This document shows, in pieces, positions 11,667 through 57,071 of a DNA stretch of 64,000 nucleotides. The translations under genes and the position numbers were made by a program. Under the pieces are notes generated by a model. It saw only the letters and a program-made list of their open reading frames with translations. It did no database searches and had not been told where the DNA came from. Every line of letters begins with the position of its first letter. The stretch's first letter is position 1. Origin of the DNA: an uncultured Bordetella sp. (lineage in GTDB: Bacteria > Pseudomonadota > Gammaproteobacteria > Burkholderiales > SG8-41); assembly GCA_964433345.1 (NCBI GenBank), contig CAYSQJ010000004.1, forward strand, positions 109,381 to 173,380. The letters are read 5' to 3'.

Positions 11667-14443
<2,777 letters not shown>

Positions 14444-15865: not shown

Positions 15866-15885
15866 TCATCAATACCCTGCTGACG

Positions 15886-16383: not shown

Positions 16384-16385
16384 CC

Positions 16386-20108: not shown

Positions 20109-20109
20109 C

Positions 20110-20367
20110 ATGGCGCACTGGCTGACCCGACAATCGACGATCCGCCGGCTCTGGCAAGTCTCCCTTGCCCTGCTGGCATTGCTGGTGCTGGCCGGTGCCC
20201 TGGTCGAGCAGCACCCCCATTTCGGAATAGACGCGGTGTTTGCCTTTCCCGCCTGGTACGGATTCGGCGCCTGCATTGTGCTGATCGTCATCGCCAAGGC
20301 GATCGGCCTGCTGCTGAAGCGGCCCGACAGCTACTATCCGCCCGAACGGGAGCCCGGCGATGACTAG
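20110..20367 (+). CDS. Small two-helix membrane protein of unknown function embedded in the Mrp-like cluster
   Basis: 85-aa ORF that starts 2 nt after the upstream stop and overlaps the downstream start by 8 nt. Two hydrophobic helices (VSLALLALLVLAGALV and GFGACIVLIVIAKAIGLLL). I recognise no family. Confidence 0.5.
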   Translation: MAHWLTRQSTIRRLWQVSLALLALLVLAGALVEQHPHFGIDAVFAFPAWYGFGACIVLIVIAKAIGLLLKRPDSYYPPEREPGDD

Positions 20368-22036
20368 CCTGCTGCTGCATCCGGGCCTGTTGCTGGTCGC
20401 CGGCGGGCTGCTGGTCGCGGTCCTGCGCGGCCGCACGCGTGCCGCGGTGATCCTGCTGCTGCCGCTGCTGGCACTGTGGCTGGTCTGGCAGGCGCCGGAC
20501 CCGGCAGCAGCGGCGACGGTGCAGTTCCTTGAGCACACGCTGCGGCCACTGGCGCCGGACAGCCTGTCGCGGCTGTTCGCGACGATATTCGCGATCATGG
20601 CTTTCGGCGGCGGCTTGTTTGCGCTGAACCAGCCCAGCCGCCTTGAAGTGCCTGCCGCCTTTGTCTACGCAGGTTCGGCCATCGGTGCCGCCATGGCGGG
20701 CGACCTGCTCACGCTGTTCGTGTTCTGGGAACTGATGGCGATCGGCTCCACGCTGGTGCTGTGGAGCGGCGGCGCCAGCCGGGCAAGTTTCCGTTACCTG
20801 ATGGTGCACCTGTTCGGCGGTGTGCTGCTGATGGCGGGCATTGCCGGCCATGTGGCGGATACCGGTTCCGTCGAATTCCTGCGCATGACGCTGGACACGC
20901 CCTGGCACTGGCTGATGCTGGCCGGTTTCCTGGTCAATGCGGGCGCGCCGCCGCTGTCAGCCTGGCTGCCCGACGCCTATCCGGAAGCTTCGTGGAGCGG
21001 CATGGTCTTCCTGTCGGCCTTCACCACCAAGACCGCGGTCTACGTGCTGCTGCGCGGGTTTCCCGGCAACGAGATCCTGATCTGGATCGGCGTGTTCATG
21101 ATTTTCTACGGCATCATCTACGCGCTGCTCGAGAACGACATGCGGCGCATTCTCGCCTACAGCATCGTCAACCAGGTGGGATTCATGGTTGCCGGCGCCG
21201 GCATCGGCACCGAAATGGCGATCAGCGGCGCGGCGGCGCATGCCTTCACCCACATCATCTACAAGGCGCTGCTGCTGATGTCCGCCGGCTCGGTGCTCTA
21301 CATGACCGGCCGGCGCAAGTGCACTGACCTCGGCGGACTGTTCCAGAGCATGCCGGTCACCTGCATCTGCGGCATCATCGGCGCGCTGGCGATCTCGGCG
21401 TTTCCGCTGACTTCCGGTTTTGTTTCCAAGTCGATGATTTCGCAGGCTGCCGCCGACCAGCATCTGCTGTGGATCTGGCTGGCGCTGGCCGCGGCTTCGG
21501 CAGGCGTGTTCCTCCACGCCGGCATCAAGTTTCCGTGGTTCGTGTTTTTCCAGAAGGACTCCGGCCTGCGGCCGCCGGATCCACCGGCAAACATGCGCGC
21601 CGCGATGATCCTGTTCTCGGTGCTGTGCATCGCCATCGGCATCTGGCCGGAGCCGCTCTACCGCCTGCTGCCGCATGCCACCGGGTACGAGCCGTACACG
21701 GCCGCGCACGTGCTGACCCAGCTGCAGCTTCTGCTGTTCTCCGGGCTGGCGTTTTTCGTGATGCTGGATTACCTGAAGCGCACGCTGACCATCACCCTCG
21801 ACGCGGACTGGCTGTACCGGGTGCTGGCGCCAGCCTTGTGGCGCGCGCTTTGCTCGGCGTACTGCGAGGTGCGGCGGTCCTTCGCCGCCGCATTGGGCCG
21901 CGGCACCGTCATTGCTGAACGTCTGCTGCGCTGTTTTGGCCCTGCAGGCCTGCTCGGCCGCACCTGGAGCACTGGTGCCACCGCGTTGTGGATGATGGTG
22001 CTTTTGCTGGCCTATCTGGTGACTTACCTGAGCTGA
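20360..22036 (+). CDS. NuoL/MrpA-N-terminal-like or MrpD-like antiporter subunit 3 (second cluster)
   Basis: 558-aa ORF. LFVFWELMAIGSTLVLW, SAWLPDAYPEASWSG, LAYSIVNQVGFMV. It is longer than the two preceding paralogues. Confidence 0.85.
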   Translation: MTSLLLHPGLLLVAGGLLVAVLRGRTRAAVILLLPLLALWLVWQAPDPAAAATVQFLEHTLRPLAPDSLSRLFATIFAIMAFGGGLFALNQPSRLEVPAAFVYAGSAIGAAMAGDLLTLFVFWELMAIGSTLVLWSGGASRASFRYLMVHLFGGVLLMAGIAGHVADTGSVEFLRMTLDTPWHWLMLAGFLVNAGAPPLSAWLPDAYPEASWSGMVFLSAFTTKTAVYVLLRGFPGNEILIWIGVFMIFYGIIYALLENDMRRILAYSIVNQVGFMVAGAGIGTEMAISGAAAHAFTHIIYKALLLMSAGSVLYMTGRRKCTDLGGLFQSMPVTCICGIIGALAISAFPLTSGFVSKSMISQAAADQHLLWIWLALAAASAGVFLHAGIKFPWFVFFQKDSGLRPPDPPANMRAAMILFSVLCIAIGIWPEPLYRLLPHATGYEPYTAAHVLTQLQLLLFSGLAFFVMLDYLKRTLTITLDADWLYRVLAPALWRALCSAYCEVRRSFAAALGRGTVIAERLLRCFGPAGLLGRTWSTGATALWMMVLLLAYLVTYLS

Positions 22037-28507: not shown

Positions 28508-28510
28508 CTT

Positions 28511-28543
28511 TATAAGTATTTGTTTTTATTGATATTTTTATAA
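28511..28543 (+). repeat. AT-rich intergenic repeat, copy A (forward)
   Basis: TATAAGTATTTGTTTTTATTGATATTTTTATAA begins 3 nt after the stop at 28507. It matches copies B-F. Confidence 0.8.
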
Positions 28544-33986: not shown

Positions 33987-35570
33987 TCAGTCGACGACCA
34001 GTGTCGGCAGTTCGATCGTGAACTGCACCCCGCTGCCGTCCGCAAGGTCGGTGGCGCTGGCGCGGCCGCGGTGGAATTCGGCCACCAGGCGAACGATGTA
34101 CAGGCCCAGCCCGAGATGAATGTCGGGCGCCTGTGCCTTGCGTGCGGATTGCATTGATTCGAACAACTGCAGGTCCGCAGGCAGTCGCGGGCCGCGGTTG
34201 CTCACCGTGAGCAGGGCGGTGGTGCCGCGCATCGCCAGCGCTACCGTCACCGGTGTGCCCGGCTCGGCGAAATCAGCGGCGTTGGCGGCGAGCTTGTCGA
34301 GCATCTGCGCGAAGAGTTGCGGGGCGCCATTGAGCATCACCGGATGTCCCGGCAGCTGCAGCTCGAAACGGCGTTCAGGATAGGCGGCGGAGTAGCCCGC
34401 GACACAGCCGGCCAGCACTGCGGCCGCATCGTAGCGTTCTCGCGCGCTGTCGCGCACCGCCTGCTCCAGCCGGGTGGCTTCCGCCATACGCGTCAGCACG
34501 GTGTCGAGCCGGTGCAGGCCGTCTTCCGCCCGCTCCAGGTACACGCCGCTGTCTGCAGGCAGCCCCTTCAGCCGCAGGTTGTCCAGAGAGGAGCGCAGCA
34601 CCGCGAGCGGCGTGCGCAGTTCGTGGGCGAGGCGGCGGGCGAGGTTTTCAAGGTAGGCGTTGGTGTCGGCCAGCCGCTTCAGCGCGAGCGAAAAGCTGCG
34701 CGAGAGGTCGCCGATTTCGTCACGCGCCGTGCTCGCGGACACCAGGGCTCGCACCTGTCCGCGGGAGTCGATGGCCTGTTCCGCCTCATCTCGCAGGCGC
34801 CTCAGCCGCAGCGACAGCCGCGAGGCGAACAGCAGCAGCACCAGCGCCGCCGCGCCGAAGGCGATCAGGGTGACCGCGATCAGCCGCTCGATCGCGCGGT
34901 GGCGGAATGAGACCGCGGCAGCCGTGCTTTCCTCGACGATGGCAACGCCGACGACGGTTTCGCCGATCCACACCGGCTGGGTGACGCTGACGATGGGCGG
35001 GCTGCCGCCGGGACCCGGCCGGCGCCGTGTGGAAGCGGCGCCATCAAGCGCGCGCTCGATCTCGCGCCCGCCGAAAATGAGGTCATCGGGGATGAATTCC
35101 TCCGCCGGCAGTGCAGGCGCATCGAGCCAGCGCGCCAGCAGGGGCCGCAGCACGGCGCGTACCGCATGTTCGACGACCCCGAAGGTGGTTTCGGCGCCGG
35201 TGCTTCCGCTGTCGCCGGCGATGTCACCGGCCACCGCAATCAGCTGCAGCCGGCGATCCACAACCCAGATGCGCAGGCCGGCGCGGGCGATGCCGGTGAC
35301 CAGCGTGCGTACTTCGGCGCGCGCTGCCTCGCCGTCTGCGGAGTCCTCCTGCAGGATGGCCAGCCGCGGCCGGTCGTGCAGCGCCGCCGCGATGGCACGC
35401 GCCGCTGCCGAGAGCTGGCGTTCCTGCTGTTCGCGCAGCAGCTGTTCGGTGGCACTGACATAGGAGTAACCGGCCCAGGGAATGACCAGCAGGACCAGCG
35501 CCACCAGCACGATGCGGCCGCGCAGCCCGATCGCGGGCAGCGCCCGGGAGTTCAGTCCGAGCTCCGCCAC
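33987..35570 (-). CDS. Sensor histidine kinase
   Basis: C-terminal part of ORF 33987-36341. A GTG at 35570 overlaps the regulator stop. One N-terminal helix, a periplasmic region and a second helix. H-box HELRTPLAVL and ATPase motifs (VSNRGPRLP, GLGLYIV). Confidence 0.8.
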   Translation of the reverse strand: MAELGLNSRALPAIGLRGRIVLVALVLLVIPWAGYSYVSATEQLLREQQERQLSAAARAIAAALHDRPRLAILQEDSADGEAARAEVRTLVTGIARAGLRIWVVDRRLQLIAVAGDIAGDSGSTGAETTFGVVEHAVRAVLRPLLARWLDAPALPAEEFIPDDLIFGGREIERALDGAASTRRRPGPGGSPPIVSVTQPVWIGETVVGVAIVEESTAAAVSFRHRAIERLIAVTLIAFGAAALVLLLFASRLSLRLRRLRDEAEQAIDSRGQVRALVSASTARDEIGDLSRSFSLALKRLADTNAYLENLARRLAHELRTPLAVLRSSLDNLRLKGLPADSGVYLERAEDGLHRLDTVLTRMAEATRLEQAVRDSARERYDAAAVLAGCVAGYSAAYPERRFELQLPGHPVMLNGAPQLFAQMLDKLAANAADFAEPGTPVTVALAMRGTTALLTVSNRGPRLPADLQLFESMQSARKAQAPDIHLGLGLYIVRLVAEFHRGRASATDLADGSGVQFTIELPTLVVD

Positions 35571-36247
35571 CGGTAGCCCAGCCCGTACACCGTATCGATG
35601 TGGTCGAAGTGCGGATCCACCGCTGCGAATTTGCGGCGCATGCGCTTGATGTGCGAGGTGATGGTGCTGTCGTCGACGACGATGTGTGCCTCGGCCATCA
35701 GCTGCTCGCGATTCTTGACATGGCCCGGATGGCGCGCCAGCGCGTGCACCAGCCAGAACTCGGTCAGCGTGAGATCGACGGCGCGGCCGTTCCAGCGCAC
35801 CGTGAAGCGCTTGAGATCTATGGTCAGCGCGCCGCGGTTCAGGGTTTCTTCGCCGCCTTCGGCTGCGGTGCCCAGCGCGGCGCGGCGGAACAGCGCCGCA
35901 ACGCGCGCCAGCAGGTGGGGCAGACTGACGCTCTTGGTGACATAGTCGTCGGCGCCCAGGCGCAGGCCGGCGACCATGTCGAACTCGTTGTCGCGTGCAG
36001 TGAGAAAAATGATCGGCAGCGTCGCCGACTGGCTGCGCAGTTCGCGGCACAGTGCGAAGCCGGCATCGGGTTCGCTGCCGAGTCCGATGTCGAGCAGCAC
36101 CAGGTCGGGCAAGCCTGCCTGCAGGCCGGCCATGGCCGAGGCACGGTCGGCGTAGAGCTGCACCGTGTAACCATGTGCTTTCAGGGCATCGGCGTAGTTC
36201 GCGCCGATGGCGGGATCGTCCTCGATGATGGCGATGCGCTGGGTCAT
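35552..36247 (-). CDS. OmpR-family response regulator
   Basis: Start MTQRIAIIEDDPAIG inside ORF 35552-36310. Receiver motifs DLVLLDIGL and ADDYVTK. Winged-helix C-terminus (VYGLGYRW). Confidence 0.88.
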   Translation of the reverse strand: MTQRIAIIEDDPAIGANYADALKAHGYTVQLYADRASAMAGLQAGLPDLVLLDIGLGSEPDAGFALCRELRSQSATLPIIFLTARDNEFDMVAGLRLGADDYVTKSVSLPHLLARVAALFRRAALGTAAEGGEETLNRGALTIDLKRFTVRWNGRAVDLTLTEFWLVHALARHPGHVKNREQLMAEAHIVVDDSTITSHIKRMRRKFAAVDPHFDHIDTVYGLGYRWRSSD

Positions 36248-36408
36248 GATGGTCGCGCCGACTATACCGCAGCAGCGGCGGCACCGCCGTGGCTGCCACT
36301 GCTTTGCCACAATTCATCGCCGCTTTGCCATGTCGCTGCATCGCGCTGCCACTCCGGCCTGTTCAAATGATCCTGCCCGATCGGGGCACATTTCACAGGA
36401 GGCCACAC

Positions 36409-41054: not shown

Positions 41055-42044
41055 CTAACGCATGAGTATGACCACCTTGCCCACCACCTTGCGATCACGC
41101 ACCGTGCGCAGGGCTTCCTGATATTGCGCCAGCGGAGAGGCTGACATCACATGCGGCCTGATCTTGCCGGCGACATACCAGTCGAACAGTTCGCGCTGCA
41201 CGCGCTGCACCTTTTCCGGCTGGCGGTCGCGGTAGGCGCTGTACTGCAGGCCGATCAGCGAGATATTCTTGACCAGCAGATGACCGGCTTTCACCTCCGG
41301 AATGCGGCCCTCCGCAAAGCCGACCACGATCAGGCGGCCGGACCAGGCGATGACCCGCAGGCTCGCATCGAAAACATCGCCGCCGACCGGATCGACGATG
41401 ATGTCGACACCGCGTTTGCCGACTGCGGCAAGCACCTGGTCACGGAAGGCGTCGCGCAGCTTCGGCACGTCGGTGCGCACCACGTGGTCCGCGCCATGCT
41501 GTTTCGCCAGCGCCGCCTTCTCCGCGCTGCCGACGCTGGCGATCACCGTTGCGCCCAGCGCCTTGCCCACCTGTATCGCGGCAATGCCGACGCCGCCGGC
41601 GGCGCCGTTGACGAGTATCGTTTCACCCGGCTGGTACTGGCCGCGCTCGACGATCGCGAAGTGCGCGGTCGGGTAGGCGATGCCCATCGCCGCGGCGTCC
41701 GCGTAACTCATCGAGTCCGGCATCGGGTAGCAGTTGTGCTGCGGCACCACGCATTTCTGGGCATAGGCGCCGTATTCATTCTGCGCGGCGACCCGGTCCC
41801 CCGGCTTGCAGGTGGTGACGCCGGCGCCGACCGCAGCGACCACGCCGGCCATATCCTTGCCCGGGCTGAAGGGGCGTTTGGGCAGCACCTGGTAAGTGCC
41901 GCCGATGACCAGCAGGTCGGGAAAATTGACGCTCGCGGCATGTACGTCGACCAGTACCTCGCCGGGACCGGGAACGGGATCTGCCGTTTCCTCGAGGACC
42001 AGGTTCTCGAGAGGGCCGTGTTCATGGACGATCAGTGCTTTCAA
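41055..42044 (-). CDS. NADPH:quinone oxidoreductase (zinc-independent MDR family)
   Basis: 329-aa ORF. GEVLVDVHAASVNFPD and VNGAAGGVGIAAIQ motifs. Confidence 0.85.
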   Translation of the reverse strand: MKALIVHEHGPLENLVLEETADPVPGPGEVLVDVHAASVNFPDLLVIGGTYQVLPKRPFSPGKDMAGVVAAVGAGVTTCKPGDRVAAQNEYGAYAQKCVVPQHNCYPMPDSMSYADAAAMGIAYPTAHFAIVERGQYQPGETILVNGAAGGVGIAAIQVGKALGATVIASVGSAEKAALAKQHGADHVVRTDVPKLRDAFRDQVLAAVGKRGVDIIVDPVGGDVFDASLRVIAWSGRLIVVGFAEGRIPEVKAGHLLVKNISLIGLQYSAYRDRQPEKVQRVQRELFDWYVAGKIRPHVMSASPLAQYQEALRTVRDRKVVGKVVILMR

Positions 42045-42226
42045 AATGGGGTCTCCGGGGCGGAAATTTTGCGAGGCGCGATTGTAACGCGGTCCCCGGC
42101 GGGCTCCCCGAAGGCTTCAGGCGGTGCATCGCCTGTAAACTCCGCGCTTGGCTGCCGAACTGTCCGGAATTGGCCCGGAACGGGAACCTTGACCGCCTCC
42201 CGGCGGTCTTCCACACTTCGCACATC

Positions 42227-43105
42227 ATGAACCCCCTGACCAAAACACTGCTTTTCCCGCTGATCGCGATCCTGCTCGCCGGTTGCGCCACTGCGCCGGT
42301 GAATCATGTCGCGTCGGACGCACCGTACGCGGTGCCGCTGGAGCGGATGTCCAAGGCACGCCCGGTGATCGGCCTCGTGCTGGGCGCGGGCGGTTCCCGC
42401 GGTTTCGCGCATGTCGGCGTGCTCAAGGCGCTGGAGGCGGCGGGCATCGAGGCCGACGTGCTGGTCGGCGTGAGCTCCGGTGCGGTGGTTGCGGCGCTGC
42501 ACGCCGGAGGCATGCGCGCAAAGGAACTGGAGGCGCATGCGCTGGAAATCGAGGACAACGACCTGCTCGATTTCACGCTGTTCGGTCCCGGCGTCATCGA
42601 GGGTGGCCGGCTCCAGCGCTATATCAACGACATGGTCGGCGGGCGCCCGATCGAGGCGCTGCAGAAACCGTTTGTCGCCGTGGTTGCCGAGCGTGAAACC
42701 CGCCGCATGACGGTGTTCAACCGCGGCAATACCGGGCTGGCGGTGCGCGCCTCTGCCAGCGTGCCGCGGCTGTTCTGGCCTGTGGTGATCCGCGGCACCG
42801 AGTATGTCGATGGCGGCGTGGCCAGCCGCGTGCCGGCTTCGGTGGCGCGCGAGATGGGCGCCGACATCGTGATCGCCGTCGACGTTTCCTGGCGCGGCTC
42901 CGCCGATGCGCGGCAGGCCGACATCGTGATCCGGCCGGAAACCGTGCGTTCGCGCATCACCGATTTTTCACACAAGCTCGCCAACCTCGCGGCCGGCGAA
43001 GCAGCCGCGCAGGAGATCGTGCCGCAGCTGCGCGAGCTGCTGGCCCGGGTAGCTTCAGAGAAATCGCGGCCGCTGCGCGTCGGCGCTGCCGGCCCGGGCG
43101 CCTAG
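42227..43105 (+). CDS. Patatin-like phospholipase lipoprotein
   Basis: Start MNPLTKTLLFPLIAILLAGC (lipobox LAGC) inside ORF 42035-43105. Patatin motifs GAGGSRG and GVSSG. Confidence 0.85.
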   Translation: MNPLTKTLLFPLIAILLAGCATAPVNHVASDAPYAVPLERMSKARPVIGLVLGAGGSRGFAHVGVLKALEAAGIEADVLVGVSSGAVVAALHAGGMRAKELEAHALEIEDNDLLDFTLFGPGVIEGGRLQRYINDMVGGRPIEALQKPFVAVVAERETRRMTVFNRGNTGLAVRASASVPRLFWPVVIRGTEYVDGGVASRVPASVAREMGADIVIAVDVSWRGSADARQADIVIRPETVRSRITDFSHKLANLAAGEAAAQEIVPQLRELLARVASEKSRPLRVGAAGPGA

Positions 43106-47911: not shown

Positions 47912-47950
47912 AATATTTTAAATACCTGATTTTATTGATATTTTTAAGAT
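47912..47950 (+). repeat. AT-rich intergenic repeat, copy C (forward)
   Basis: AATATTTTAAATACCTGATTTTATTGATATTTTTAAGAT begins 4 nt after the adhC stop. It is flanked by CGGAA...TTCCGG. Confidence 0.8.
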
Positions 47951-48513: not shown

Positions 48514-50007
48514 ATGAGTCTCAGCTTCGACAACAGCTACGCCCGCGATCTCGAAGGCCTCTACGTGCCGTGGAAGGCAGCGGAGGTGCCGCAGCCGAAG
48601 CTGATCCGGCTCAACCATGCGCTGGCCGAAGAACTAGGGCTCGACGCCGCTTCTCTGGATTCCCCCGAAGGCGCGCAACTCTTCTCCGGCAACCAAATCC
48701 CCGAAGGCACGGCCACCATCGCCCAGGCCTACGCCGGCCACCAGTTCGGCGGTTTCTCGCCGCAGCTCGGCGACGGCCGTGCGCTGCTGCTGGGCGAGGT
48801 CATTGACCAGCAGGGCAGACGCCGCGACATAGCGTTCAAGGGTTCCGGACGCACGCCGTTTTCACGCGGTGGTGACGGCAAGGCGGCGCTGGGGCCGGTG
48901 CTGCGTGAATACATCATCGGCGAGGCGATGCATGCGCTGGGCATCCCGACTACCCGCGCATTGGCGGCGGTGACCACCGGCGAATTCGTGCGTCGTGAAC
49001 GCAACCTGCCGGGGGCGGTGCTGACGCGGGTCGCGGCTAGCCACGTCCGGGTCGGGACTTTCCAGTTCGCCGCCGCGCGCGGTGACGAGGCCTTGCTGAA
49101 AAAACTTGCCGATTACGTGATCGACCGCCATTACCCGGAGGTCGGGGGCGCGGACAAACCGTATTTTGAATTGCTGCGCGCCCTCTGCGAGCGGCAGGCG
49201 GCGCTGATTGCGCGCTGGATGAACGTGGGCTTCATCCACGGCGTGATGAACACCGACAACATGACGCTCTCCGGCGAGACCATCGACTACGGACCTTGCG
49301 CCTTCATGGACCGTTACGATCCGAAGACCGTGTTCAGCTCCATCGATGAATACGGGCGTTATGCCTATGTCAACCAGCCGCCGATCGCCAACTGGAACCT
49401 TGCGCGCTTCGCCGAGGCGCTGCTGCCGCTGCTGATCGGCGAGAGCGGCGGCGAACAGGACAGGGCGGTGGAGCGGGCGATGGAAATCCTCGGCGATTTC
49501 CAGTCGTGTTACGAGCAGCACTGGCTGGCCGGCATGCGTGCGAAGCTCGGACTGACGCGCGGGGAGGATGGTGACCTCGAACTGGCGCAGGATTTTCTCG
49601 CCGGCATGGAAGGGCAGGGTGTCGATTTCACGCTGGCCTTCCGCCGGCTGGCCGATGCCGCTGAAGCGGCGGATGCTTCGCGCGAGGGCTGGCTGCGGCA
49701 GCTCTATGCGGACGATGCGAAACTCGATGCCTGGCTGCCGCGCTGGCGCGCGCGCATCAATGCCGAAGGCATCGATCCCGCGCGACGCGCAATTGCGATG
49801 CGCGGCGTGAATCCGCTCTACATTCCGCGCAATCACAAGGTCGAGGAAGCGCTCGATGCCGCGGTTGCACTCGGCAATTACGAACCGTTCGAGCGATTGC
49901 TCGCCGTTTTGCAGCAACCCTACACTGAAAAGCCGGAATGGGCGGCCTATGCCGAGCCGGCGACTGCGGAAGCCTCCGCCGGTTATCGCACCTTCTGCGG
50001 CACATAA
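48514..50007 (+). CDS. selO: Protein adenylyltransferase SelO (YdiU/UPF0061)
   Basis: 497-aa [64 protein letters not shown]. Confidence 0.9.
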
Positions 50008-50042
50008 TATAAATACTTGATTATATTGATATTTTTGTAAAT
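50008..50042 (+). repeat. AT-rich intergenic repeat, copy D (forward)
   Basis: TATAAATACTTGATTATATTGATATTTTTGTAAAT is contiguous with the selO TAA stop. It lies between convergent genes. Confidence 0.8.
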
Positions 50043-50047
50043 CTGCG

Positions 50048-50848
50048 TCAGGCGGCGTCGGCGGTGTAGAGCGGCACCACCTTGCCCTCGTCGTCGTTGG
50101 CCGCGCGCACCTCGGGTTCCCAGCGCACCAGTTCCATGCGGCCGTCGAGGTGTTCGACCACCGCGGTGCAGCTGTCCACCCAGTCACCGCAGTTGATGTA
50201 GGTGATCTCGCCGATCCGCCGCAGCACGGGTGTGTGGATGTGGCCGCAGATCACGCCGTCGAGCCCGCGCTGCGCGGCGGTATGCGCCACCGCGCTTTCG
50301 AAGTCGCTGATGAAGCTGACCGCCTGCAGCACGTTGCGCTTGGCGTAGTCGGCCAGCGACCAGTGGCCGCTGACGCCGAGCTTGCGCCGCATCCACGACA
50401 GCAGGCGGTTGACGTGGATCAGGAAGGTGTACGAGATGTCGCCGAGCACCGAGATCCAGCGGTGCAGCCGGGTGACCTGGTCGTATTCGTCACCATGCAG
50501 CACCAGGTATTTTTTGCCGTCGGCGGCGACGTGCACGTGTTCGCGCAGCAGGTGGACGTCGCCGAAGTTGGAGCCGACATGTTCGCGCAGCAGTTCGTCG
50601 TGGTTGCCGGGGATCAGGCAGACCCGGGTTTCGTGGCGCGCCTTCTTCAGGATTTTCTGCACCACGGTGTTGTGCGTCGCCGGCCAGTGCACCGCGCGGT
50701 TCATTGCCCAGAAATCGATGATGTCGCCGACCAGGAACAGGTTCTCGCACTCATAGGACTTGAGGAAGGCGAGCAGGTGTTCGGCCTGGCAGGCGCGGGT
50801 GCCGAGGTGGATGTCGGAGAGGAACAGCGTGCGGACGCGTCGGGTCAT
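50048..50848 (-). CDS. plcP: LpxH-family metallophosphoesterase, PlcP-like phospholipase C candidate
   Basis: 266-aa ORF. LFLSDIHLG, VGDIIDFW, GNHD and GHIH metallophosphoesterase motifs. ATGA-coupled to the upstream methyltransferase and BtaA-like genes. Confidence 0.6.
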   Translation of the reverse strand: MTRRVRTLFLSDIHLGTRACQAEHLLAFLKSYECENLFLVGDIIDFWAMNRAVHWPATHNTVVQKILKKARHETRVCLIPGNHDELLREHVGSNFGDVHLLREHVHVAADGKKYLVLHGDEYDQVTRLHRWISVLGDISYTFLIHVNRLLSWMRRKLGVSGHWSLADYAKRNVLQAVSFISDFESAVAHTAAQRGLDGVICGHIHTPVLRRIGEITYINCGDWVDSCTAVVEHLDGRMELVRWEPEVRAANDDEGKVVPLYTADAA

Positions 50849-51570
50849 CAGGCGGGATTTCCAGTCAGGGGCTTGCGCCCGAGGTAGAGGTAGTAGGGCA
50901 TGCGCAGCCCGGGCAGGTAGGGCAGGGCCGCGGTCGATTCGCGCAGCACCCGCGTTTCGGTCAGCTGCTGCAGGGTGTCGACATGGGCGCGGTCGAGGCG
51001 CACGCCGTCATGGGCAAACCAGCGCCGCCAGAACTCGCAGGCGCAGCGGTCCGCGAGGCAATCGCCCCTCGGCAGGCCGAAATCGACGACGCCGAGCAGG
51101 CCGCCGGGCTTGAGCATGGCCAGTGCGTTGCCGAGCGCCGCGTGCCACTGCGGCATCATCGTCAGCGCATAGGAAAAGTAGATGCAGTCGGCTGACTGCA
51201 GTGGCTGGTACTTCACGGCGTCGGCCTCGATGATGCGCACCCTCGGCTGCAGCGCCCAGCGTTTGCGCGCCTGTTCGAGCAGGGCCGGGCAGAGGTCGAC
51301 CAGTTCGACGTGATGGAAATCGAGCAGCCGTTCGCCGAAATACTCGGCATTGCGGCCGGTGCCGGCACCGAGTTCGATGACCACCGCCCCCTCCGGCGGA
51401 TCCAGCAGTTCCACCAGTTCGCGCCGGCCGTGCAGCAGCTTCTCGCGGAAACTGTCGTAATGCCCGGCCTGGGGGCGGTAAAAACGTTCCAGGCGTTCGG
51501 CGTGGCTGCCGCTGCTTCCCGCGCCGCGCGCCATCTGCCACAGGGTGCGGAGTTCTGCGGTGATCGGCAT
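50848..51570 (-). CDS. btaB: Class I SAM-dependent methyltransferase, BtaB-like
   Basis: 240-aa C-terminal part of ORF 50848-52245 starting MPITAELRTLW at 51570. SAM motif VIELGAGTGRN. It lies 17 nt downstream of the DUF3419 gene. Confidence 0.65.
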   Translation of the reverse strand: MPITAELRTLWQMARGAGSSGSHAERLERFYRPQAGHYDSFREKLLHGRRELVELLDPPEGAVVIELGAGTGRNAEYFGERLLDFHHVELVDLCPALLEQARKRWALQPRVRIIEADAVKYQPLQSADCIYFSYALTMMPQWHAALGNALAMLKPGGLLGVVDFGLPRGDCLADRCACEFWRRWFAHDGVRLDRAHVDTLQQLTETRVLRESTAALPYLPGLRMPYYLYLGRKPLTGNPA

Positions 51571-51587
51571 TTTCACGGCGGCCTCGT

Positions 51588-52808
51588 TCAGGCGCGGACG
51601 TCGGCGATGTGGAAGCCGGCGTAGGTGTGGACGCGATCCTCGCGGTTGAGTCGCGCCGCGAGCCCGGGGTGGAAATCCAGCAGTTCGCGCAGGCGGCGGC
51701 CGCGGCCCGCGCCCGGCACGGTCAGCGTGTCGAGGTAGGCGGGCTGTGCGTGGGAGCTGCGGAAGATCGCGCGCGCGCCGGGCGCCGCGCAGTCGAGCAG
51801 GGCGGCCCATTCCTCGCGCAGGGCTTCGGGTTTGAACGAGCCCAGCCAGTCCATGTGGTCGAGCAGCACGAATTTCGAAATCTGCGGCTGCTTGTCGCGC
51901 AGCAGTTCGGTGACCGTGCAGGTATGGTGGGTAATGCGGTCCGCGAGACCGTTTTTCAGCGCGAGGAAATTGCCGCGTTTGAGGTACTCGGGACAGCAGT
52001 CGCGGCTGTAGCTGCCGCGCACATAGACCCGCCAGAAATAGTTGGTCCACAGCGGCAGGCTGCGGAACACGTATTCCACGGCTTCGCGCACGAATCCGGG
52101 TACGCCGCCGGCGTGCTGGCGGCGCACTTCCTCGTGCTGGGGTGCAGGCACGCCGAGCATGCTCATAGTGATTTGCCGCGACAGCGCCCAGTTGACGCCG
52201 CGGTTCCACATCCGCGGCGCTACGCGCGCGTCGTAGATGCTGCATTGTTCGTCGAGCGATTTCGCCTCGACCAGTTCATCGACCGCATCGCGCAGTTTCG
52301 GCTGCAGGTCGAGGTAATGGCGGAACAGCAGCGCGACGCGGCCTGACAGGCTGTGGAAATAGAAGGTGTTGCGCGGATTGCTGCGGCTGAACCAGTCGCC
52401 GGCGCCGTCCCAGAACTGCTTCGCGAAGGGCGACAGTTCGCGCCGCAGCAGGTCGCGGTACAGTTCCGGGAAATGCGGGTGCCGGCCTTCGCCGAAGAGC
52501 ATGAAAAAATCGGTGTGCGACAGGCGGCGGATGCCGGCCAGCTTCAGTTCCAGCAGCGCGGTCTGCCGCGGATTGGCGTCGACAGCGTGGATACGCTTCG
52601 GTCCGGCCAGCGCATAGTCCAGCACGTTGCAGCCGGCGCTGGTGATCACCAGGATCGTGTCCTCCGCGGTAATGCTCAGCGCCTGCCGGTCCACCGCCGG
52701 ATCTTCCCAGCAGGTGTTGTAGATCAGCGAGCGGGAATACAGCGCATCGAACACTTTCTGGTTCATGCGCTCGCTCATGCGTTTTGTCAGTGAGCTGCTC
52801 AAAGTCAT
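51588..52808 (-). CDS. btaA: DUF3419/BtaA-like S-adenosylmethionine:diacylglycerol 3-amino-3-carboxypropyl transferase
   Basis: 406-aa ORF. LIYNTCWEDPAVDRQAL, ITSAGCNVLDYAL and HAVDANPRQTALLELK match the BtaA-type family pattern. The start could be a downstream Met. Confidence 0.7.
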   Translation of the reverse strand: MTLSSSLTKRMSERMNQKVFDALYSRSLIYNTCWEDPAVDRQALSITAEDTILVITSAGCNVLDYALAGPKRIHAVDANPRQTALLELKLAGIRRLSHTDFFMLFGEGRHPHFPELYRDLLRRELSPFAKQFWDGAGDWFSRSNPRNTFYFHSLSGRVALLFRHYLDLQPKLRDAVDELVEAKSLDEQCSIYDARVAPRMWNRGVNWALSRQITMSMLGVPAPQHEEVRRQHAGGVPGFVREAVEYVFRSLPLWTNYFWRVYVRGSYSRDCCPEYLKRGNFLALKNGLADRITHHTCTVTELLRDKQPQISKFVLLDHMDWLGSFKPEALREEWAALLDCAAPGARAIFRSSHAQPAYLDTLTVPGAGRGRRLRELLDFHPGLAARLNREDRVHTYAGFHIADVRA

Positions 52809-52816
52809 TGATTGCT

Positions 52817-52904
52817 CTCCGGATTCGACGCGATCAGCCTAAGCGTGGATTGTTGCCGTGGTATGACCTGCGGATTGCGGAATGGCGTCAACGCGCTGCG
52901 GATT
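52817..52904. promoter_or_regulatory. Four direct CTGCGGATT-like 9-mers in the btaA/pabB divergent intergenic region
   Basis: CTCCGGATT (about 52817), GCGTGGATT (about 52843), CTGCGGATT (about 52868) and CTGCGGATT (about 52896). Spacing is 25-28 bp. Confidence 0.4.
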
Positions 52905-52919
52905 CATTAAAATGCGGCA

Positions 52920-54311
52920 ATGACCATCCCGCTGCTGACCGAACTGCCGTACCGCGAGGACAGCGCCGCGCTGTTCGAGGCGGTTGCGGACCGGCCGTGG
53001 GCAGTGTTTCTCGACAGCGGCCTGCACCACCCGGGGCAGGCGCGTTACGACATCATTGCCGCCGACCCGCATGTGCGGCTGGTCACCCGCGGCGCGCTGA
53101 CCGAAATCCATGACGAGGCGAGCGAGCTGTCGCGCGCCGATCCCTTCGAACTGCTGCGCGGGCGGCTCTGTTTCGAGCCAGGCTGTGCCGGCGACCTGCC
53201 TTTCGCCGGCGGCGCGATCGGTTATTTCGGTTATGACCTCGCTCGCCGCATCGAGCGCCTGCCGCTGCGTGCGCGGGCCAGCGAACGCATCCCCGACATG
53301 GCCGTCGGCATCTACGACTGGGCCGTCGTGGTCGATCATTCCGAACGCCGCGCCTGGCTCGCCGGGCAGGGGCGTGATCCGGACACCGACCGCAAATGGG
53401 ACGCGCTGGTGCGGCTGTTCAGCGCCACCCCCGCCGAACGCCAGCGCACCCCCTTCCGGGTGACTTCGCCGGTGACCTCGAATTTCACGCCCAAGGGTTA
53501 CGGGCACGCCTTCGACCGTGTACTGGGCTATATCCGTGCCGGCGACTGTTACCAGGTCAACCTCGCACAGCGTTTCATCGCCCAGGCCAGCGGCGATCCC
53601 TGGCTGGCCTACCAGCGGCTGCGGCTGATCAATCCGGCGCCGTACTCGGCCTATTTCAGCACGCCCTATGCACAGATCCTGTCGGCCTCGCCGGAGCGTT
53701 TCCTGCGCGTGCAGGACGGTGCGGTGGAGACCAAGCCGATCAAGGGCACGCGGCCGCGCGCCGGGCATGCCCGGCTCGACGCCGAGCGCATTGCCGAATT
53801 GCTGGCGAGCGAGAAGGACCGCGCCGAGAACCTGATGATCGTCGACCTGTTGCGCAACGACCTGTCGAAGAACTGCGCCACCGGCACGGTGAAGGTGCCC
53901 AAGCTGTTCGAGGTCGAGAGTTTCGCCACCGTGCACCACCTGGTGAGCACGGTGACCGGGAAGCTGAAGCCAGGGAGTGACGCGATCGACCTGCTGCGCG
54001 GCGCTTTCCCCGGCGGCTCGATCACCGGCGCGCCGAAGCTGCGCGCGATGCAGATCATCGAGGAACTGGAGCCGCACCGCCGCGGCGTCTATTGCGGGGC
54101 CATCGGCTACATCGGACACGACGGCGGCATGGATACCAACATCGCGATCCGCACCCTGGTGCATTCCGGGGGCACGGTGCGGCTGTGGGCCGGCGGCGGC
54201 ATTGTCGCCGATTCGCAGTGCGAAGCCGAGTACCAGGAAACCTTCGACAAGGCAGCCGCCCTGTTGAGCCTGCTGCAGCAGAGCGCGGAAAGCGCCAGCG
54301 GCGGCGCCTGA
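52920..54311 (+). CDS. pabB: Aminodeoxychorismate synthase component I
   Basis: 463-aa ORF. Chorismate-binding family motifs SPERFL, KGTRPR, FPGGSITGAPK and RGVYCGAIGY. Size and N-terminus fit PabB rather than TrpE. Confidence 0.85.
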   Translation: MTIPLLTELPYREDSAALFEAVADRPWAVFLDSGLHHPGQARYDIIAADPHVRLVTRGALTEIHDEASELSRADPFELLRGRLCFEPGCAGDLPFAGGAIGYFGYDLARRIERLPLRARASERIPDMAVGIYDWAVVVDHSERRAWLAGQGRDPDTDRKWDALVRLFSATPAERQRTPFRVTSPVTSNFTPKGYGHAFDRVLGYIRAGDCYQVNLAQRFIAQASGDPWLAYQRLRLINPAPYSAYFSTPYAQILSASPERFLRVQDGAVETKPIKGTRPRAGHARLDAERIAELLASEKDRAENLMIVDLLRNDLSKNCATGTVKVPKLFEVESFATVHHLVSTVTGKLKPGSDAIDLLRGAFPGGSITGAPKLRAMQIIEELEPHRRGVYCGAIGYIGHDGGMDTNIAIRTLVHSGGTVRLWAGGGIVADSQCEAEYQETFDKAAALLSLLQQSAESASGGA

Positions 54312-54312
54312 A

Positions 54313-54330
54313 CCGTCATCTTCCCGTAAC
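54313..54330 (+). promoter_or_regulatory. Pho-box-like site upstream of phoX
   Basis: CCGTCAT-CTTC-CCGTAAC: two 7-bp direct repeats with 11-bp periodicity, resembling CTGTCAT-N4-CTGTCAT. It lies 44-61 nt upstream of the phoX ATG. Confidence 0.45.
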
Positions 54331-54373
54331 GGATGCACCGTATTGTCCGCGCTTCCATTTCAAGGGAGCGCAA

Positions 54374-56305
54374 ATGAGCCACAGCTACAGCGACGGGCGC
54401 AGCCTCAACGGCTCGCCGAATGCCACGTTTGAACAGGTCCTGGAGGCGCGCTTGTCGCGCCGGGGGCTGCTGAAGGGCGCCGCCGCGCTGGCGGCGATTT
54501 CCGCGCTGCCGCTGTCGCTGGGGGCCTGCGCCACGACCGGCCTGCGGCGCGAGGGCCGGCTCGGTTTCAGCGGCATCACGGTTTCAACGGCCGATGCGGT
54601 TCGTGTCCCCGCAGGGTATTCGGCGAAGGTGCTGTATGCCTGGGGCGATCCGGTCGGCCACCCTTCCGGCTCGCCCGCCTTCCGTCATGACGCCGGCAAC
54701 AGCGCCGCCGAGCAGGCGCTGCAGGCGGGCATGCACCATGATGGCATCCATTATTTTCCGCTGCCCTACGGCTCGGAGAATTCCGCCAGCGGCCTGCTGG
54801 TGATGAATCACGAATACACCGATGACGGCCTGCTGCACAGCGACGGATTCGCCAACTGGAGCGCGGAGAAGGTGCGCAAGGCGCAGAACGCCCACGGCTG
54901 TTCGGTGATCGAGGTGCGTGCCACGGCCGGCGGCCAGTGGGAAGTCGTGCGGCCCTCGCGTTATGCGCGGCGCATCACCGCGGCGACGCCGATGCGCATT
55001 GCCGGTCCGGCTGCGGGCAGCGCCGGCATGAAGACCGCCGCCGATCCCGCGGGCAACGAAGTGCTGGGCACCTTCAACAACTGTGCCCACGGTTACACGC
55101 CCTGGGGGACGTACCTGACCTGCGAGGAAAACTGGGACACCTACTTCGCAAACATCGGTACGCTGACCGCGGACCAGCGGCGCAATGGCGTGACGGCGAA
55201 GGGCCGCGGTTACCGCTGGGAGGAGTTCGACGAGCGTTTTGATGCGGGCAAGCATCCCAACGAACCCAACCGCCACGGCTGGGTGGTGGAGTTCGATCCC
55301 TATGATCCGCAGTCGAAACCGGTCAAACGTACCGCGCTCGGCCGTTTCAGCCACGAGGGCGCCTGGCCGGCCACGGCGAAGGACGGCCGGTTGGTGATCT
55401 ACATGGGAGATGACCGGGCCTTCGAGTACATTTACAAGTTCGTGTCGCGCGACGCGTACAGCCGCAGCGACCGCAAGGCCAATGCCAAGCTCCTCGACCA
55501 TGGCACGCTGTACGTCGCGAAGTTCAATGATGACGGCAGCGGCGAATGGATTCCGCTGGTGCATGGCCGCGGCAAACTGACCGCTGCCAACGGTTTTGCC
55601 GACCAGGCCGACGTGTTGATTCGCACGCGTGCCGCGGCCGACGCCGCCGGCGCGACGAAAATGGACCGTCCGGAATGGATCGCGGTGCATCCGGCGACAA
55701 ACGAGGTGTACTGCACACTGACCAACAACAGCCAGCGCGGCGGCAAGGATCGCCCCGGTACCGACCGCGCCAATCCGCGGGCCAACAACGTGTTCGGCCA
55801 GATCATCCGCTGGCGCGAGGCCGGCAACGATCCGGCCGGGATGAAATTCGAATGGGACCTGTTTGCAATCGCCGGTGATCCGCAGCATCCTGACCCGGCG
55901 CGCCACGGCAACATCAAGGGCGACGCCTACGGCAGTCCCGACGGCCTGTGGTTCGATGACGGCGGCCTGCTGTGGATACAGACCGATGTGTCGGCGAGCA
56001 CGCAGAACCGCAATCATTACGAACGGCTGGGCAACAACCAGATGCTGGCCGCAGACATCCGCAGCGGCGAGACCCGGCGTTTCCTGACCGGGCCGAGCGG
56101 CAGTGAGGTGACGGGGGTTGTTACCACTCCGGACGGGCGTACGATGTTCGTCAATATCCAGCATCCGGGCGAAGCGCCGAAAGGACGCAACGACCCGAAA
56201 AATCCGAAGGCGCACAGCAGCTGGCCCGACGGCGCCGCCGGCGGCCGGCCGCGCTCGGCGACACTGGTCATCCGCAGGAACGACGGCGGCATCATCGGCA
56301 GCTGA
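54374..56305 (+). CDS. phoX: PhoX-family alkaline phosphatase (Tat-exported)
   Basis: ATG at 54374 follows AAGGGAG (within ORF 54092-56305). Tat signal LSRRGLLKGAAALAA. MNHEYTD, FNNCAHGYTPWGTYLTCEEN, DRPEWIAVHP and SPDGLWFD blocks are typical of PhoX/DUF839. Confidence 0.88.
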   Translation: MSHSYSDGRSLNGSPNATFEQVLEARLSRRGLLKGAAALAAISALPLSLGACATTGLRREGRLGFSGITVSTADAVRVPAGYSAKVLYAWGDPVGHPSGSPAFRHDAGNSAAEQALQAGMHHDGIHYFPLPYGSENSASGLLVMNHEYTDDGLLHSDGFANWSAEKVRKAQNAHGCSVIEVRATAGGQWEVVRPSRYARRITAATPMRIAGPAAGSAGMKTAADPAGNEVLGTFNNCAHGYTPWGTYLTCEENWDTYFANIGTLTADQRRNGVTAKGRGYRWEEFDERFDAGKHPNEPNRHGWVVEFDPYDPQSKPVKRTALGRFSHEGAWPATAKDGRLVIYMGDDRAFEYIYKFVSRDAYSRSDRKANAKLLDHGTLYVAKFNDDGSGEWIPLVHGRGKLTAANGFADQADVLIRTRAAADAAGATKMDRPEWIAVHPATNEVYCTLTNNSQRGGKDRPGTDRANPRANNVFGQIIRWREAGNDPAGMKFEWDLFAIAGDPQHPDPARHGNIKGDAYGSPDGLWFDDGGLLWIQTDVSASTQNRNHYERLGNNQMLAADIRSGETRRFLTGPSGSEVTGVVTTPDGRTMFVNIQHPGEAPKGRNDPKNPKAHSSWPDGAAGGRPRSATLVIRRNDGGIIGS

Positions 56306-56387: not shown

Positions 56388-56488
56388 CGGTTTAATCGTA
56401 CGTTTGTTGGATGCTGGCTTTCGCCGGCGGTGTCCGGCTTCCCGCGGATTTGTGCCATCATCGCGTTTCCTACGAAGGGAGTGCGACG

Positions 56489-56665
56489 ATGGCTGTCTTG
56501 GAATTGACGCAGGAAAATTTCGAATCGACGATCACCGGCAACAAAATGGTGATCGTGGATTTCCGGGCGCCGTGGTGCGGGCGCGCGCCGCGACTCGTTA
56601 GCCGCAGGCCCGTTTGCGGGAGCGGCGCGCCAGGGGCCGCAAGCCGATCACTGGACAGGAGCTGA
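56489..56665 (+). pseudogene. Decayed 5-prime thioredoxin fragment / thioredoxin-derived upstream ORF
   Basis: MAVLELTQENFESTITGNKMVIVDFRAPWCG parallels the first 31 residues of the downstream thioredoxin (about 85 percent nucleotide identity over about 93 nt by my hand alignment). It then diverges and CGPC is lost (WCGRA). It has its own GAAGGGAG RBS and ends 4 nt before the trx ATG. Confidence 0.6.
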
Positions 56666-56669
56666 GACC

Positions 56670-57038
56670 ATGCCTGTTCTGGAACTGACGCAGCAGAATT
56701 TCGAGAGCACGATCACCGGCAACAAAATCGTGATCTTGGATTTCTGGGCGCCGTGGTGCGGCCCCTGCAAAAGTTTTGCGCCGGTGTTCGAGGCTGCCGC
56801 GGAAAAACACCCCGACGTGGTGTTCGCCAAGGTCAATTCGGACGACGAGCAGGCACTGGCCGGTCATTTCGGCATCCGCTCGATTCCGACCATCATGCTG
56901 TTCCGCGAACAGATCATCGTGTTCATGCAGGCGGGTGCCTTGCCGGCCTCGGGACTGGAGAGCGTGCTAGAGCAGGCGAAGGCGCTGGACATGGAGCAGG
57001 TGCGCCGCGACATCGCTGCGCAGCAGTCGCAGCAGTAA
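56670..57038 (+). CDS. trx: Thioredoxin
   Basis: 122-aa ORF with WAPWCGPCK active site and the IRSIPT cis-Pro loop. Confidence 0.9.
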   Translation: MPVLELTQQNFESTITGNKIVILDFWAPWCGPCKSFAPVFEAAAEKHPDVVFAKVNSDDEQALAGHFGIRSIPTIMLFREQIIVFMQAGALPASGLESVLEQAKALDMEQVRRDIAAQQSQQ

Positions 57039-57071
57039 AAATATCAATAAAATCAAATACTTATAATTTAT
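57036..57071 (-). repeat. AT-rich intergenic repeat, copy E (reverse)
   Basis: The plus strand reads TAAAAATATCAATAAAATCAAATACTTATAATTTAT and includes the trx TAA stop. Its reverse complement TATAAGTATTTGATTTTATTGATATTTTTA is the closest copy to the family consensus. It contains AATCAAATACTTA. Confidence 0.8.

Follow-up and report, generated by a model that had tools for sequence, protein, structure and literature searches.

A probable phosphate-starvation module of an uncultured member of the Burkholderiales: a predicted btaA-btaB-plcP operon and phoX with conserved Pho-box-like sites

A stretch of 64 kb of DNA, referred to here as the window, carries a group of genes that raises one question: do a btaA-like gene, a btaB-like gene, a plcP-like gene and a neighbouring phoX form a single phosphate-starvation module, and is its product the phosphorus-free betaine lipid DGTS? 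The reading favoured here, and considered probable, is that btaA-btaB-plcP and phoX make up a PhoB-controlled module with DGTS as its lipid product. The three lipid genes lie on the minus strand, and pabB followed by phoX lies on the plus strand (Table 1). The window's nearest relatives by synteny are Burkholderiales/Betaproteobacteria MAGs with 79-94% amino-acid identity, which agrees with the betaproteobacterial host proposed in the initial annotation and assigns the window, by sequence comparison, to a Burkholderiales MAG. Open reading frame and domain data also bear out the gene set and coordinates reported earlier, including the 17-nt spacing between btaA and btaB. The junction of btaB and plcP had been described as a 4-nt ATGA overlap and has to be corrected. 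It reads GCC TGA TGA CCC, a 1-nt overlap (TGATG) in which the btaB stop occupies 50850-50848 and the plcP ATG occupies 50848-50846. The pabB product contains the Chorismate_bind and Anth_synt_I_N domains (Pfam) and passes the pabB model with 389 bits (cut-off 328).

Table 1. Features of the locus in window coordinates; gene names are predicted assignments.
Feature	Coordinates	Strand	Details
btaA (DUF3419)	52808..51588	-	406 aa; Pfam PF11899
btaB-like class-I SAM methyltransferase	51570..50848	-	240 aa; Methyltransf_25/23/11 domains
plcP (metallophosphoesterase-type intracellular phospholipase C)	50848..50048	-	266 aa; Metallophos
Pho-box-like repeat array 5' of btaA	52852..52890	-	conserved block and matrix score
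-10-like hexamer TAGGCT, btaA	52836..52841	-	read from sequence; promoter role inferred
pabB (aminodeoxychorismate synthase component I)	52920..54311	+	TIGR00553; divergent from btaA; bystander
Pho-box-like site CCGTCAT-CTTC-CCGTAAC, phoX	54313..54330	+	conserved position and matrix score
-10-like hexamer TATTGT, phoX	54341..54346	+	read from sequence; promoter role inferred
phoX alkaline phosphatase	54374..56305	+	643 aa; PF05787 PhoX; predicted Tat signal

The first gene of the operon encodes a DUF3419 protein that matches PF11899 with an E-value of 4e-111 over model positions 5-383 of 385, which is the full length of the model. Rhizobial BtaA, represented by the protein whose locus is syntenic with S. 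meliloti btaAB, is 28-31% identical to it over about 95% of its length. In an NJ tree, the window protein grouped with the methyltransferase-linked BtaA clades, and a DUF3419 clade lacking the methyltransferase stood apart from this group with 95% bootstrap. The neighbours of that methyltransferase-less clade are KAS III, an oxidoreductase, an MBL hydrolase and a CoF-synthetase-like gene. The BtaA-like label given earlier is supported by the full-length domain match and by the btaB-like partner found at nearly all of the best loci. Its phylogenetic side stands in part: the protein joins the methyltransferase-linked BtaA clades, but it does so as a separate clade of its own, distant from rhizobial BtaA. 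Members of this clade are 59-66% identical to the window protein and occur in Burkholderiales, Rhodocyclaceae, Chromatiaceae, Xanthomonadales-type and some Planctomycetota/Acidobacteriota genomes. Cultured carriers of the Beta/Gamma BtaA clade include Plasticicumulans lactativorans, Dokdonella ginsengisoli and Thiohalocapsa marina, together with Imhoffiella purpurea and Thiocystis violacea.

A search for a solved structure of the DUF3419 family found none. The AlphaFold model of the window protein (pLDDT 87) gave Foldseek matches that were all class-I SAM-dependent methyltransferases, and all were weak (E of 2.7e-3 or higher, TM of at most 0.41). Two invariant segments, I55/S57-A-G-C-N61 and A75-V-D77, would fit motif I and post-I. 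The protein is classed as a predicted member of the BtaA family.

The second gene encodes a methyltransferase with 37-38% identity (90-96 bits) to the methyltransferase located 3' of rhizobial btaA. Its top match in the PDB reached just 37 bits, and the PE and phosphoethanolamine N-methyltransferases in the PDB scored 29-32 bits. No NCBIfam model exceeded its cut-off for this protein. Among the class-I SAM methyltransferases compared, it is most similar to BtaB, in line with its earlier description as a BtaB-like SAM methyltransferase, and N-methylation of DGHS is predicted.

At least 599 species genomes contain the pair of DUF3419 gene and methyltransferase gene. Linkage was counted in the best 80 genome loci, where a btaB homologue lies directly 3' of the DUF3419 gene in 79. 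The contiguous triad, with plcP directly downstream, was found in 25 of these 80 loci, and in another 6 plcP lies no more than a few kb away. Betaproteobacterial labels are attached to 27 of the 80, and 13 of those 27 have the contiguous triad. Systems of this kind are already known, and they are common among related genomes. The initial annotation had regarded the triad as notable for a Betaproteobacterium, and this was overstated, given the abundance of the pair and a cluster that is already published (PMC4796936).

The identity of the lipid is the point at which another explanation has most room. The DUF3419 and methyltransferase pair of this clade, which is dominated by Beta- and Gammaproteobacteria, could make a phosphorus-free membrane lipid other than DGTS. 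Such a product could be a different lipid with an aminocarboxypropyl modification, one methylated in another way, or one whose acceptor is not diacylglycerol. The clade's distance from rhizobial BtaA, set against the much higher identity within the clade, would fit this, as would the existence of at least one DUF3419 clade in a clearly different biosynthetic context without a methyltransferase. No lipid data were found in the literature for carriers of the clade, and literature searches found no report of DGTS in any Betaproteobacterium or in the purple sulfur bacteria that carry it. Against this, the homology to BtaA spans the full protein length, the partner enzyme scores far better against BtaB than against any solved structure, and the enrichment of Pho boxes upstream of btaA homologues (given below) agrees with known DGTS regulons. 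Diacylglycerol is taken as the acceptor because the pair recurs in one operon with a PlcP that would produce it. It is considered unlikely that the pair makes a different phosphorus-free lipid, and equally unlikely that the clade represents a distinct head-group transferase whose product is some betaine or amino lipid different from DGTS.

A PhoB box consists of two or more 7-bp repeats at an 11-bp phase, which replace the -35 element and lie about 10 bp upstream of the -10 element. Upstream of btaA, three to four repeats follow one another in 11-bp phase (TTGACGC-CATT-CCGCAAT-CCGC-AGGTCAT-ACCA-CGGCAAC). This second Pho-box-like array of the locus had been missed by the initial annotation. In eight relatives (79-94% protein identity), the array is a conserved block in an otherwise divergent intergenic region. 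The hexamer TAGGCT lies 10 bp 3' of the last repeat and 27 nt 5' of the btaA ATG, and its TANNCT pattern is kept in 8 of 8 aligned relatives. The phoX site had been reported earlier and proved exact in sequence and position. It is also conserved, since the corresponding position in relatives reads CCGTCAT-CGTC-CTGTCAC, GCGTCAT-CATT-CTGTAAC or CCGTCAT-CGTT-CTGTCAC. These are closer to the consensus than the window site and agree with it at up to 12 of 14 positions. TATTGT lies 10 bp 3' of the phoX Pho box and is kept in 2 of 3 relatives.

A Pho-box matrix was built from 19 btaA upstream sites of other genomes and run on about 128,000 window positions. With this independent matrix, CCGCAATCCGCAGGTCAT (52880-52863), upstream of btaA, ranked second among the roughly 128,000 positions, and the phoX site ranked third. 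The top match, at 29016 on the minus strand, is antisense and intragenic and is presumably noise. Among btaA homologues, 44 of 79 upstream regions contained a site with at least 10 of the 14 positions of CTGTCATN4CTGTCAT, compared with 3.3 +/- 1.8 matching regions in dinucleotide shuffles. The controls gave 14 of 82 for the reverse strand and 6 of 412 for coding windows. No phoB, phoR or pst genes were found within the window, and hence it offers no local Pho-box consensus. One OmpR-type regulator is present, and it belongs to a sortase system.

The phoX product matches PF05787 with an E-value of 2e-178. A 737-aa open reading frame from 54092 is over-extended; the ATG that begins the gene in Table 1 is preceded by the Shine-Dalgarno sequence AAGGGAG at 54362-54368. 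The N-terminus has the twin-arginine motif SRRGLLK (S28-K34), followed by a hydrophobic stretch, and a lipobox-like LGAC with Cys52. The Pfam TAT_signal model was below its threshold (18.6 bits, threshold 22.7). The PhoX domain and the SRRGLLK motif together uphold the earlier prediction of a Tat-exported PhoX. Within the best 80 loci, phoX adjoins the btaA operon only in the closest relatives of the window.

The Pho-box-like strings might instead have arisen by chance or be bound by a different regulator. In that case phosphate would not control the operon and phoX together in this organism, and the position of phoX would be coincidental. Both window boxes are degenerate, differing from the strict 14-position consensus at 4 (phoX site) and 5 positions. 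A scan of the window with this consensus yielded no sites with 3 or fewer mismatches, where 3.1 were expected by chance. The limited phoX adjacency, which is absent from loci L006 and L008-L010, and the first rank of a presumed noise match point the same way. In contrast, two of the three top matrix matches are correctly oriented and fall within two short promoter regions. Each is separated from a -10-like hexamer by the canonical 10 bp and is kept in relatives, and the near-consensus phoX sites of relatives add to this. Chance or a different regulator is improbable. The btaA and phoX upstream sites fit the promoter layout of a Pho regulon and are regarded as putative PhoB boxes.

The third gene encodes a protein with a Metallophos domain (Pfam, E 1e-11). 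It is 51.6% identical to P. aeruginosa PlcP (PA3219) and 49% identical to the lone LpxH-like protein of S. meliloti, which is PlcP. The P. aeruginosa protein was taken as PA3219 because a GT1 gene and cyaB come after it. As a cross-check, the P. aeruginosa and S. meliloti homologues are 46.6% identical to each other, and the published value for PA3219 and S. meliloti PlcP is 46% (PMC8528852). The metal-binding motifs read from the translation are intact (D12-I-H14, G41-D42, G81-N-H-D84, H118 in HGD and G202-H-I-H205). The protein is thus a predicted orthologue of PlcP and not of LpxH. Its earlier naming as PlcP-like is well founded, given about 50% identity to two experimentally characterised PlcPs.

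That the protein is the lipid A enzyme LpxH (UDP-2,3-diacylglucosamine diphosphatase), placed after the methyltransferase incidentally, is scarcely credible: LpxH models head its NCBIfam list, homologues on plasmid records are annotated as that enzyme and its sole PDB sequence match is the LpxH structure 5k8k, but it falls far below the cut-offs (58.1 bits vs 134 for NF003743; 48.8 vs 190.35 for TIGR01854), scores 33 bits against LpxH and 245-269 against characterised PlcPs, and has alphaproteobacterial and Pseudomonas orthologues that bear the LpxH annotation and are experimentally shown PlcPs. Homologues of this protein are routinely mis-annotated as LpxH.

Several known systems resemble the locus. 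The btaA/btaB genes of Rhodobacter sphaeroides are reportedly a two-gene operon that is sufficient for DGTS (Klug and Benning 2001; Riekhof et al. 2005). According to literature descriptions, a DUF3419-type aminocarboxypropyl transferase is followed by an N-methyltransferase there, as is predicted for the window, but plcP is not linked. The btaA, btaB and plcP genes of S. meliloti are said to be induced by phosphate limitation and genetically verified. Their products have the identities to the window proteins given above, but plcP (SMc00171) lies about 390 kb from btaAB on the same record, whereas the window has all three genes in one operon. A similar arrangement is found in Phaeobacter sp. 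MED193, whose 'type 1' plcP-btaA-btaB cluster has a Pho box (Sebastian et al. 2016, PMC4796936). In that strain, PlcP supplies diacylglycerol for DGTS, and deletion of plcP abolishes DGTS (PMC4796936). Both loci unite the same three enzyme families in one cluster preceded by a Pho box, which is predicted in the window. The gene order differs (plcP-btaA-btaB in MED193; btaA-btaB-plcP with the TGATG overlap in the window). The host differs as well, MED193 being an alphaproteobacterium. The window BtaA belongs to a separate clade with about 30% identity to alphaproteobacterial BtaA. In P. aeruginosa, PA3219-PA3218 is the plcP-agt1 lipid renovation operon (Jones et al. 2021, PMC8528852). There too, plcP is co-transcribed with the gene for an enzyme that uses its diacylglycerol, and a Pho box lies upstream. 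The partner is a glycosyltransferase for glycolipids, whereas the predicted partners in the window are betaine-lipid genes.

For the favoured reading, a PhoB-controlled module with DGTS as its product, the following sequence of events can be proposed. Under phosphate scarcity, PhoB would activate two promoters, one for the translationally coupled btaA-btaB-plcP and one for phoX. PlcP, an intracellular Mn-type metallophosphoesterase, would cleave the phosphorylated head group from phospholipids to give diacylglycerol and recoverable phosphate. BtaA would transfer the 3-amino-3-carboxypropyl group of SAM to this diacylglycerol to form diacylglyceryl-homoserine, which BtaB would convert to DGTS by three N-methylations. 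PhoX, exported by the Tat pathway and possibly a lipoprotein, would scavenge phosphate from external organic esters.

The mechanism is not new. The pathway, its regulation and this type of gene cluster have already been described. If confirmed, the locus would extend PlcP-fed betaine-lipid remodelling beyond Alphaproteobacteria to uncultured Burkholderiales of freshwater, sludge or soil and to their gammaproteobacterial relatives. It would also bear on the source attribution of environmental betaine lipids and on how btaA is used to mark phosphorus limitation. If the clade makes DGTS, betaine-lipid remodelling would be demonstrated for the first time in Betaproteobacteria and purple sulfur bacteria, and the clade would provide a bacterial source for the betaine lipids of freshwater and anoxic settings.

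The three-gene arrangement on the minus strand that the initial annotation proposed as a phosphate-starvation block is present. Gene A (btaA-like, DUF3419), gene B (a btaB-like methyltransferase) and gene C (plcP, a metallophosphoesterase) share one orientation, and the stated 17-nt gap separates A from B. At the B/C junction (GCC-TGA-TGA-CCC), the stop codon of B at 50850-50848 and the ATG of C at 50848-50846 overlap by 1 nt (TGATG), not by the 4-nt ATGA described earlier. pabB is divergent from A, and phoX follows 62 nt after pabB. The observation on the gene block is confirmed with two small corrections. Pfam assigns A to DUF3419 (PF11899) over its full length (E 4e-111), finds class-I SAM methyltransferase domains in B, and places C among calcineurin-like Metallophos proteins. 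In base composition the block does not stand out from the rest of the window. An Rfam scan of the whole window returned no matches, and promoter and terminator scans gave nothing exceeding shuffle expectation.

Positions of the features discussed in the text
Feature	Position	Strand	Description
Antiporter sets	9775-22036	opposite strands	two Mrp/Mnh-type multisubunit sets
AT-rich element	28508-28538	-	
Gly/Ala-rich ORF	34317-34910		
Gly/Ala-rich ORF	35166-35576		
OmpR-type regulator	35552-36310	-	
Patatin-like gene	42035-43105	+	
AT-rich element	47914-47944	-	
AT-rich element	50005-50035	-	
C (plcP)	50848..50048	-	266 aa; ORF listing and direct strand reading
B (btaB-like)	51570..50848	-	240 aa; ORF listing and direct strand reading
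A (btaA-like)	52808..51588	-	406 aa; ORF listing and direct strand reading
Site upstream of btaA	52880	-	candidate Pho box
pabB	52920..54311	+	Chorismate_bind and Anth_synt_I_N (Pfam)
Site upstream of phoX	54313	+	candidate Pho box
phoX	start ATG 54374	+	PhoX, E 2e-178 (Pfam)
PhoX residues 1-52	54374-54529	+	
Pseudo-ORF	56411..56665		
trx partial duplicate	56482-56580		
trx 5' end	56663-56761		
Intact trx	56670..57038		
AT-rich element	57038-57068	+	

Gene C had been read as an LpxH-family enzyme resembling PlcP, the supplier of diacylglycerol. Its best NCBIfam matches are LpxH models, but its scores of 58 and 49 bits fall well short of the respective cut-offs of 134 and 190, and its only sequence match in the PDB is the LpxH structure 5k8k, at 33 bits. 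In a tblastn search of plasmid and chromid records, C is 51.6% identical to a Pseudomonas aeruginosa homologue whose gene precedes those for a family-1 glycosyltransferase and an adenylate cyclase, the PA3219-PA3218-cyaB arrangement. The same search gave 49% identity to the single LpxH-like gene of a chromosome-sized Sinorhizobium meliloti record. The two homologues are 46.6% identical to each other, and the published value for PA3219 and S. meliloti PlcP is 46% (Jones et al., PMC8528852), which confirms both PlcP identifications. The metallophosphoesterase motifs of C are all intact. These sequence comparisons identify gene C as PlcP, not LpxH.

A is 28-31% identical to a rhizobial DUF3419 protein over about 95% of its length; between B and the methyltransferase encoded downstream of that rhizobial gene, identity is 37-38%. 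Rhizobium leguminosarum and S. meliloti share the gene order of this locus (LysE, transglycosylase, serine hydrolase, DUF3419, methyltransferase, GH25, transglycosylase), which corresponds to btaAB, and the literature has established the role of btaAB in the synthesis of DGTS, a phosphorus-free betaine lipid. Rhizobium sp. plasmid pMK-2 (CP041205.1, 98599-106555) encodes a DUF3419 protein that lacks a partner methyltransferase; it is 25.6% identical to A and lies in a cluster with KAS III, an NAD(P)-dependent oxidoreductase, an MBL-fold hydrolase and a CoF-synthetase-like enzyme. In a bootstrapped neighbour-joining tree of 23 sequences, this methyltransferase-less group, which also contains a Brevibacillus homologue, is separated from every other DUF3419 sequence with 95% support, and the window clade and the rhizobial BtaA clade form distinct sister groups. 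The separate position of the plasmid protein means that BtaA does not account for the whole family, and the topology puts A on the BtaB-linked side, in a subfamily of its own. By homology, A and B form a pair of the BtaA/BtaB type, although a distant one. A search of PDB sequences with A found no solved relative, and its AlphaFold model (pLDDT 87) gave weak and generic Foldseek matches to class-I SAM-dependent methyltransferases only. The modelled fold is compatible with SAM use, and such matches add little beyond a SAM-dependent fold. Close homologues are already named "BtaA family protein" or given the full enzyme name by NCBI and JGI.

Three short metagenome contigs encode a protein identical to A, with the same neighbours. 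Among genome records, the nearest are MAGs labelled as Burkholderiales or Betaproteobacteria, with 79-94% identity in A and the shared order selO - C - B - A - pabB; the suspected betaproteobacterial placement stands. A survey of A relatives with one genome per species confirmed at least 599 stretches, and the best 80 of these (59-97% identity to A) were compared as loci. Among these best 80 of at least 599, a B homologue directly follows A in 79, and a C homologue directly follows B in 25 and is no more than a few kb away in a further 6. Record titles identify 27 of the 80 as betaproteobacterial, and the contiguous triad is present in 13 of these 27. The remaining loci of the 80 are mainly from Chromatiaceae and other Gammaproteobacteria, with a few Planctomycetota or Acidobacteriota MAGs; cultured carriers in this set are Imhoffiella, Thiorhodococcus, Thiocystis, Halochromatium, Thiohalocapsa, Chromatium okenii, Plasticicumulans and Dokdonella. 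A complete triad in a betaproteobacterium had been considered notable; the wide recurrence of the arrangement and the earlier publication of this type of cluster weaken that claim.

The textbook Pho-box consensus is CTGTCATN4CTGTCAT, and the Pho-box-like site first noticed upstream of phoX has 4 mismatches to it. A strict search of the whole window, allowing up to 3 mismatches, found 0 matches where 3.1 were expected by chance, so the site is not significant against the textbook consensus. This candidate becomes convincing only through its conservation and an independently built matrix. Its equivalents in relatives (CCGTCAT-CGTC-CTGTCAC, GCGTCAT-CATT-CTGTAAC and CCGTCAT-CGTT-CTGTCAC) are nearer to the consensus, and a 10-bp spacer separates the site from TATTGT downstream, the canonical geometry of a Pho promoter. 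An alignment of the divergent btaA-pabB intergenic region from eight genomes revealed a conserved island of 11-bp-phased repeats, TTGACGC-CATT-CCGCAAT-CCGC-AGGTCAT-ACCA-CGGCAAC, with a conserved TANNCT hexamer 10 bp beyond it. A forward match to 10 or more of the 14 consensus positions is present in 44 of 79 upstream regions of btaA homologues, compared with 3.3 ± 1.8 in dinucleotide shuffles, 14 of 82 on the reverse strand and 6 of 412 coding windows. When a matrix was built from the 19 best btaA upstream sites, leaving out the close relatives of the window, and applied to about 128,000 window positions, the site upstream of btaA ranked second and the phoX site third; the top-ranked site is an antisense intragenic match. 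Conservation at both promoters, enrichment across the family and the matrix ranks make the predicted PhoB control of both units, the btaA operon and phoX, well supported computationally.

No phoB, phoR or pst genes, from which a local Pho box could have been derived, were found in the window. Its only OmpR-type regulator belongs to a sortase system, scoring 365 bits with the "proteobacterial dedicated sortase system response regulator" model, against a cut-off of 336. Beside it are two glycine/alanine-rich ORFs with a first-codon-position GC of 0.85 and no family matches. The window also encodes, 7 kb away from the lipid-remodelling operon, a patatin-like phospholipase whose resemblance to RssA falls below cut-off; none of the top matrix matches is near it.

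The reading of PhoX as Tat-exported agrees with its PhoX domain and its N-terminus, MSHSYSDGRSLNGSPNATFEQVLEARLSRRGLLKGAAALAAISALPLSLGAC..., which carries a canonical SRRxLLK twin-arginine motif, and export is predicted; the short Pfam TAT model scored just under threshold. The start codon is preceded by AAGGGAG, and a longer ORF from 54092 was rejected as an over-extension. The signal peptide ends in a lipobox-like L-G-A-C (Cys52) after the twin-arginine motif, and PhoX may be a lipoprotein exported by the Tat pathway and not a soluble enzyme of the periplasm. Among the best 80 of at least 599 loci, phoX is next to the operon only in the closest relatives of the window (L004, L005 and L007), and this adjacency looks incidental. 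Downstream of phoX, 99 nt of the 5' end of a thioredoxin gene are tandemly duplicated with 85% identity. The upstream copy, within a pseudo-ORF preceding the intact trx, diverges directly past the W-C-G codons and has lost the CGPC active site. Spacing in relatives suggests that L004 and L005 lack the duplication and that L007 possibly has it.

An AT-rich element of about 31 nt, AAAATATCAATAAAATCAAATACTTATAATT, is dispersed in this 65% GC genome, with four copies in the window and none expected by chance. Each copy abuts a gene end, adjacent to or overlapping the stop codon where identifiable, and the element has no hairpin, Rfam match or promoter call. It also occurs in L004-L007 and L012, and the closest relatives have two or three copies per 15 kb at orthologous intergenic positions. 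The inverted copies at 50005-50035 and 57038-57068, flanking the operon and phoX, were considered as the ends of a mobile 7-kb block; this was rejected owing to the additional copies in the window, the orthologous copies in relatives and the ordinary GC of the block. Window-wide annotation also identified two cation:proton antiporter sets, each with several Proton_antipo_M proteins.

Six plcP neighbourhoods have been described (Sebastian et al. 2016, PMC4796936). In "type 1", from Phaeobacter MED193, plcP precedes btaA and btaB and a Pho box is present; plcP deletion abolishes DGTS, with SAR11 plcP complementing (PMC4796936). The window contains the same btaA, btaB and plcP families but differs in its order, btaA-btaB-plcP, in bacterial class and in its divergent BtaA subfamily. 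In P. aeruginosa, PlcP is instead coupled to a glycosyltransferase (PMC8528852), unlike the btaA-btaB of the window. The literature searched gave no direct report of DGTS in Betaproteobacteria, Burkholderiales or the purple sulfur bacteria carrying this clade. A lipid swap under phosphate starvation, with predicted DGTS synthesis, is the supported interpretation of the operon, and its residual novelty would be the Beta/Gamma BtaA subfamily, with DGTS as its putative product.
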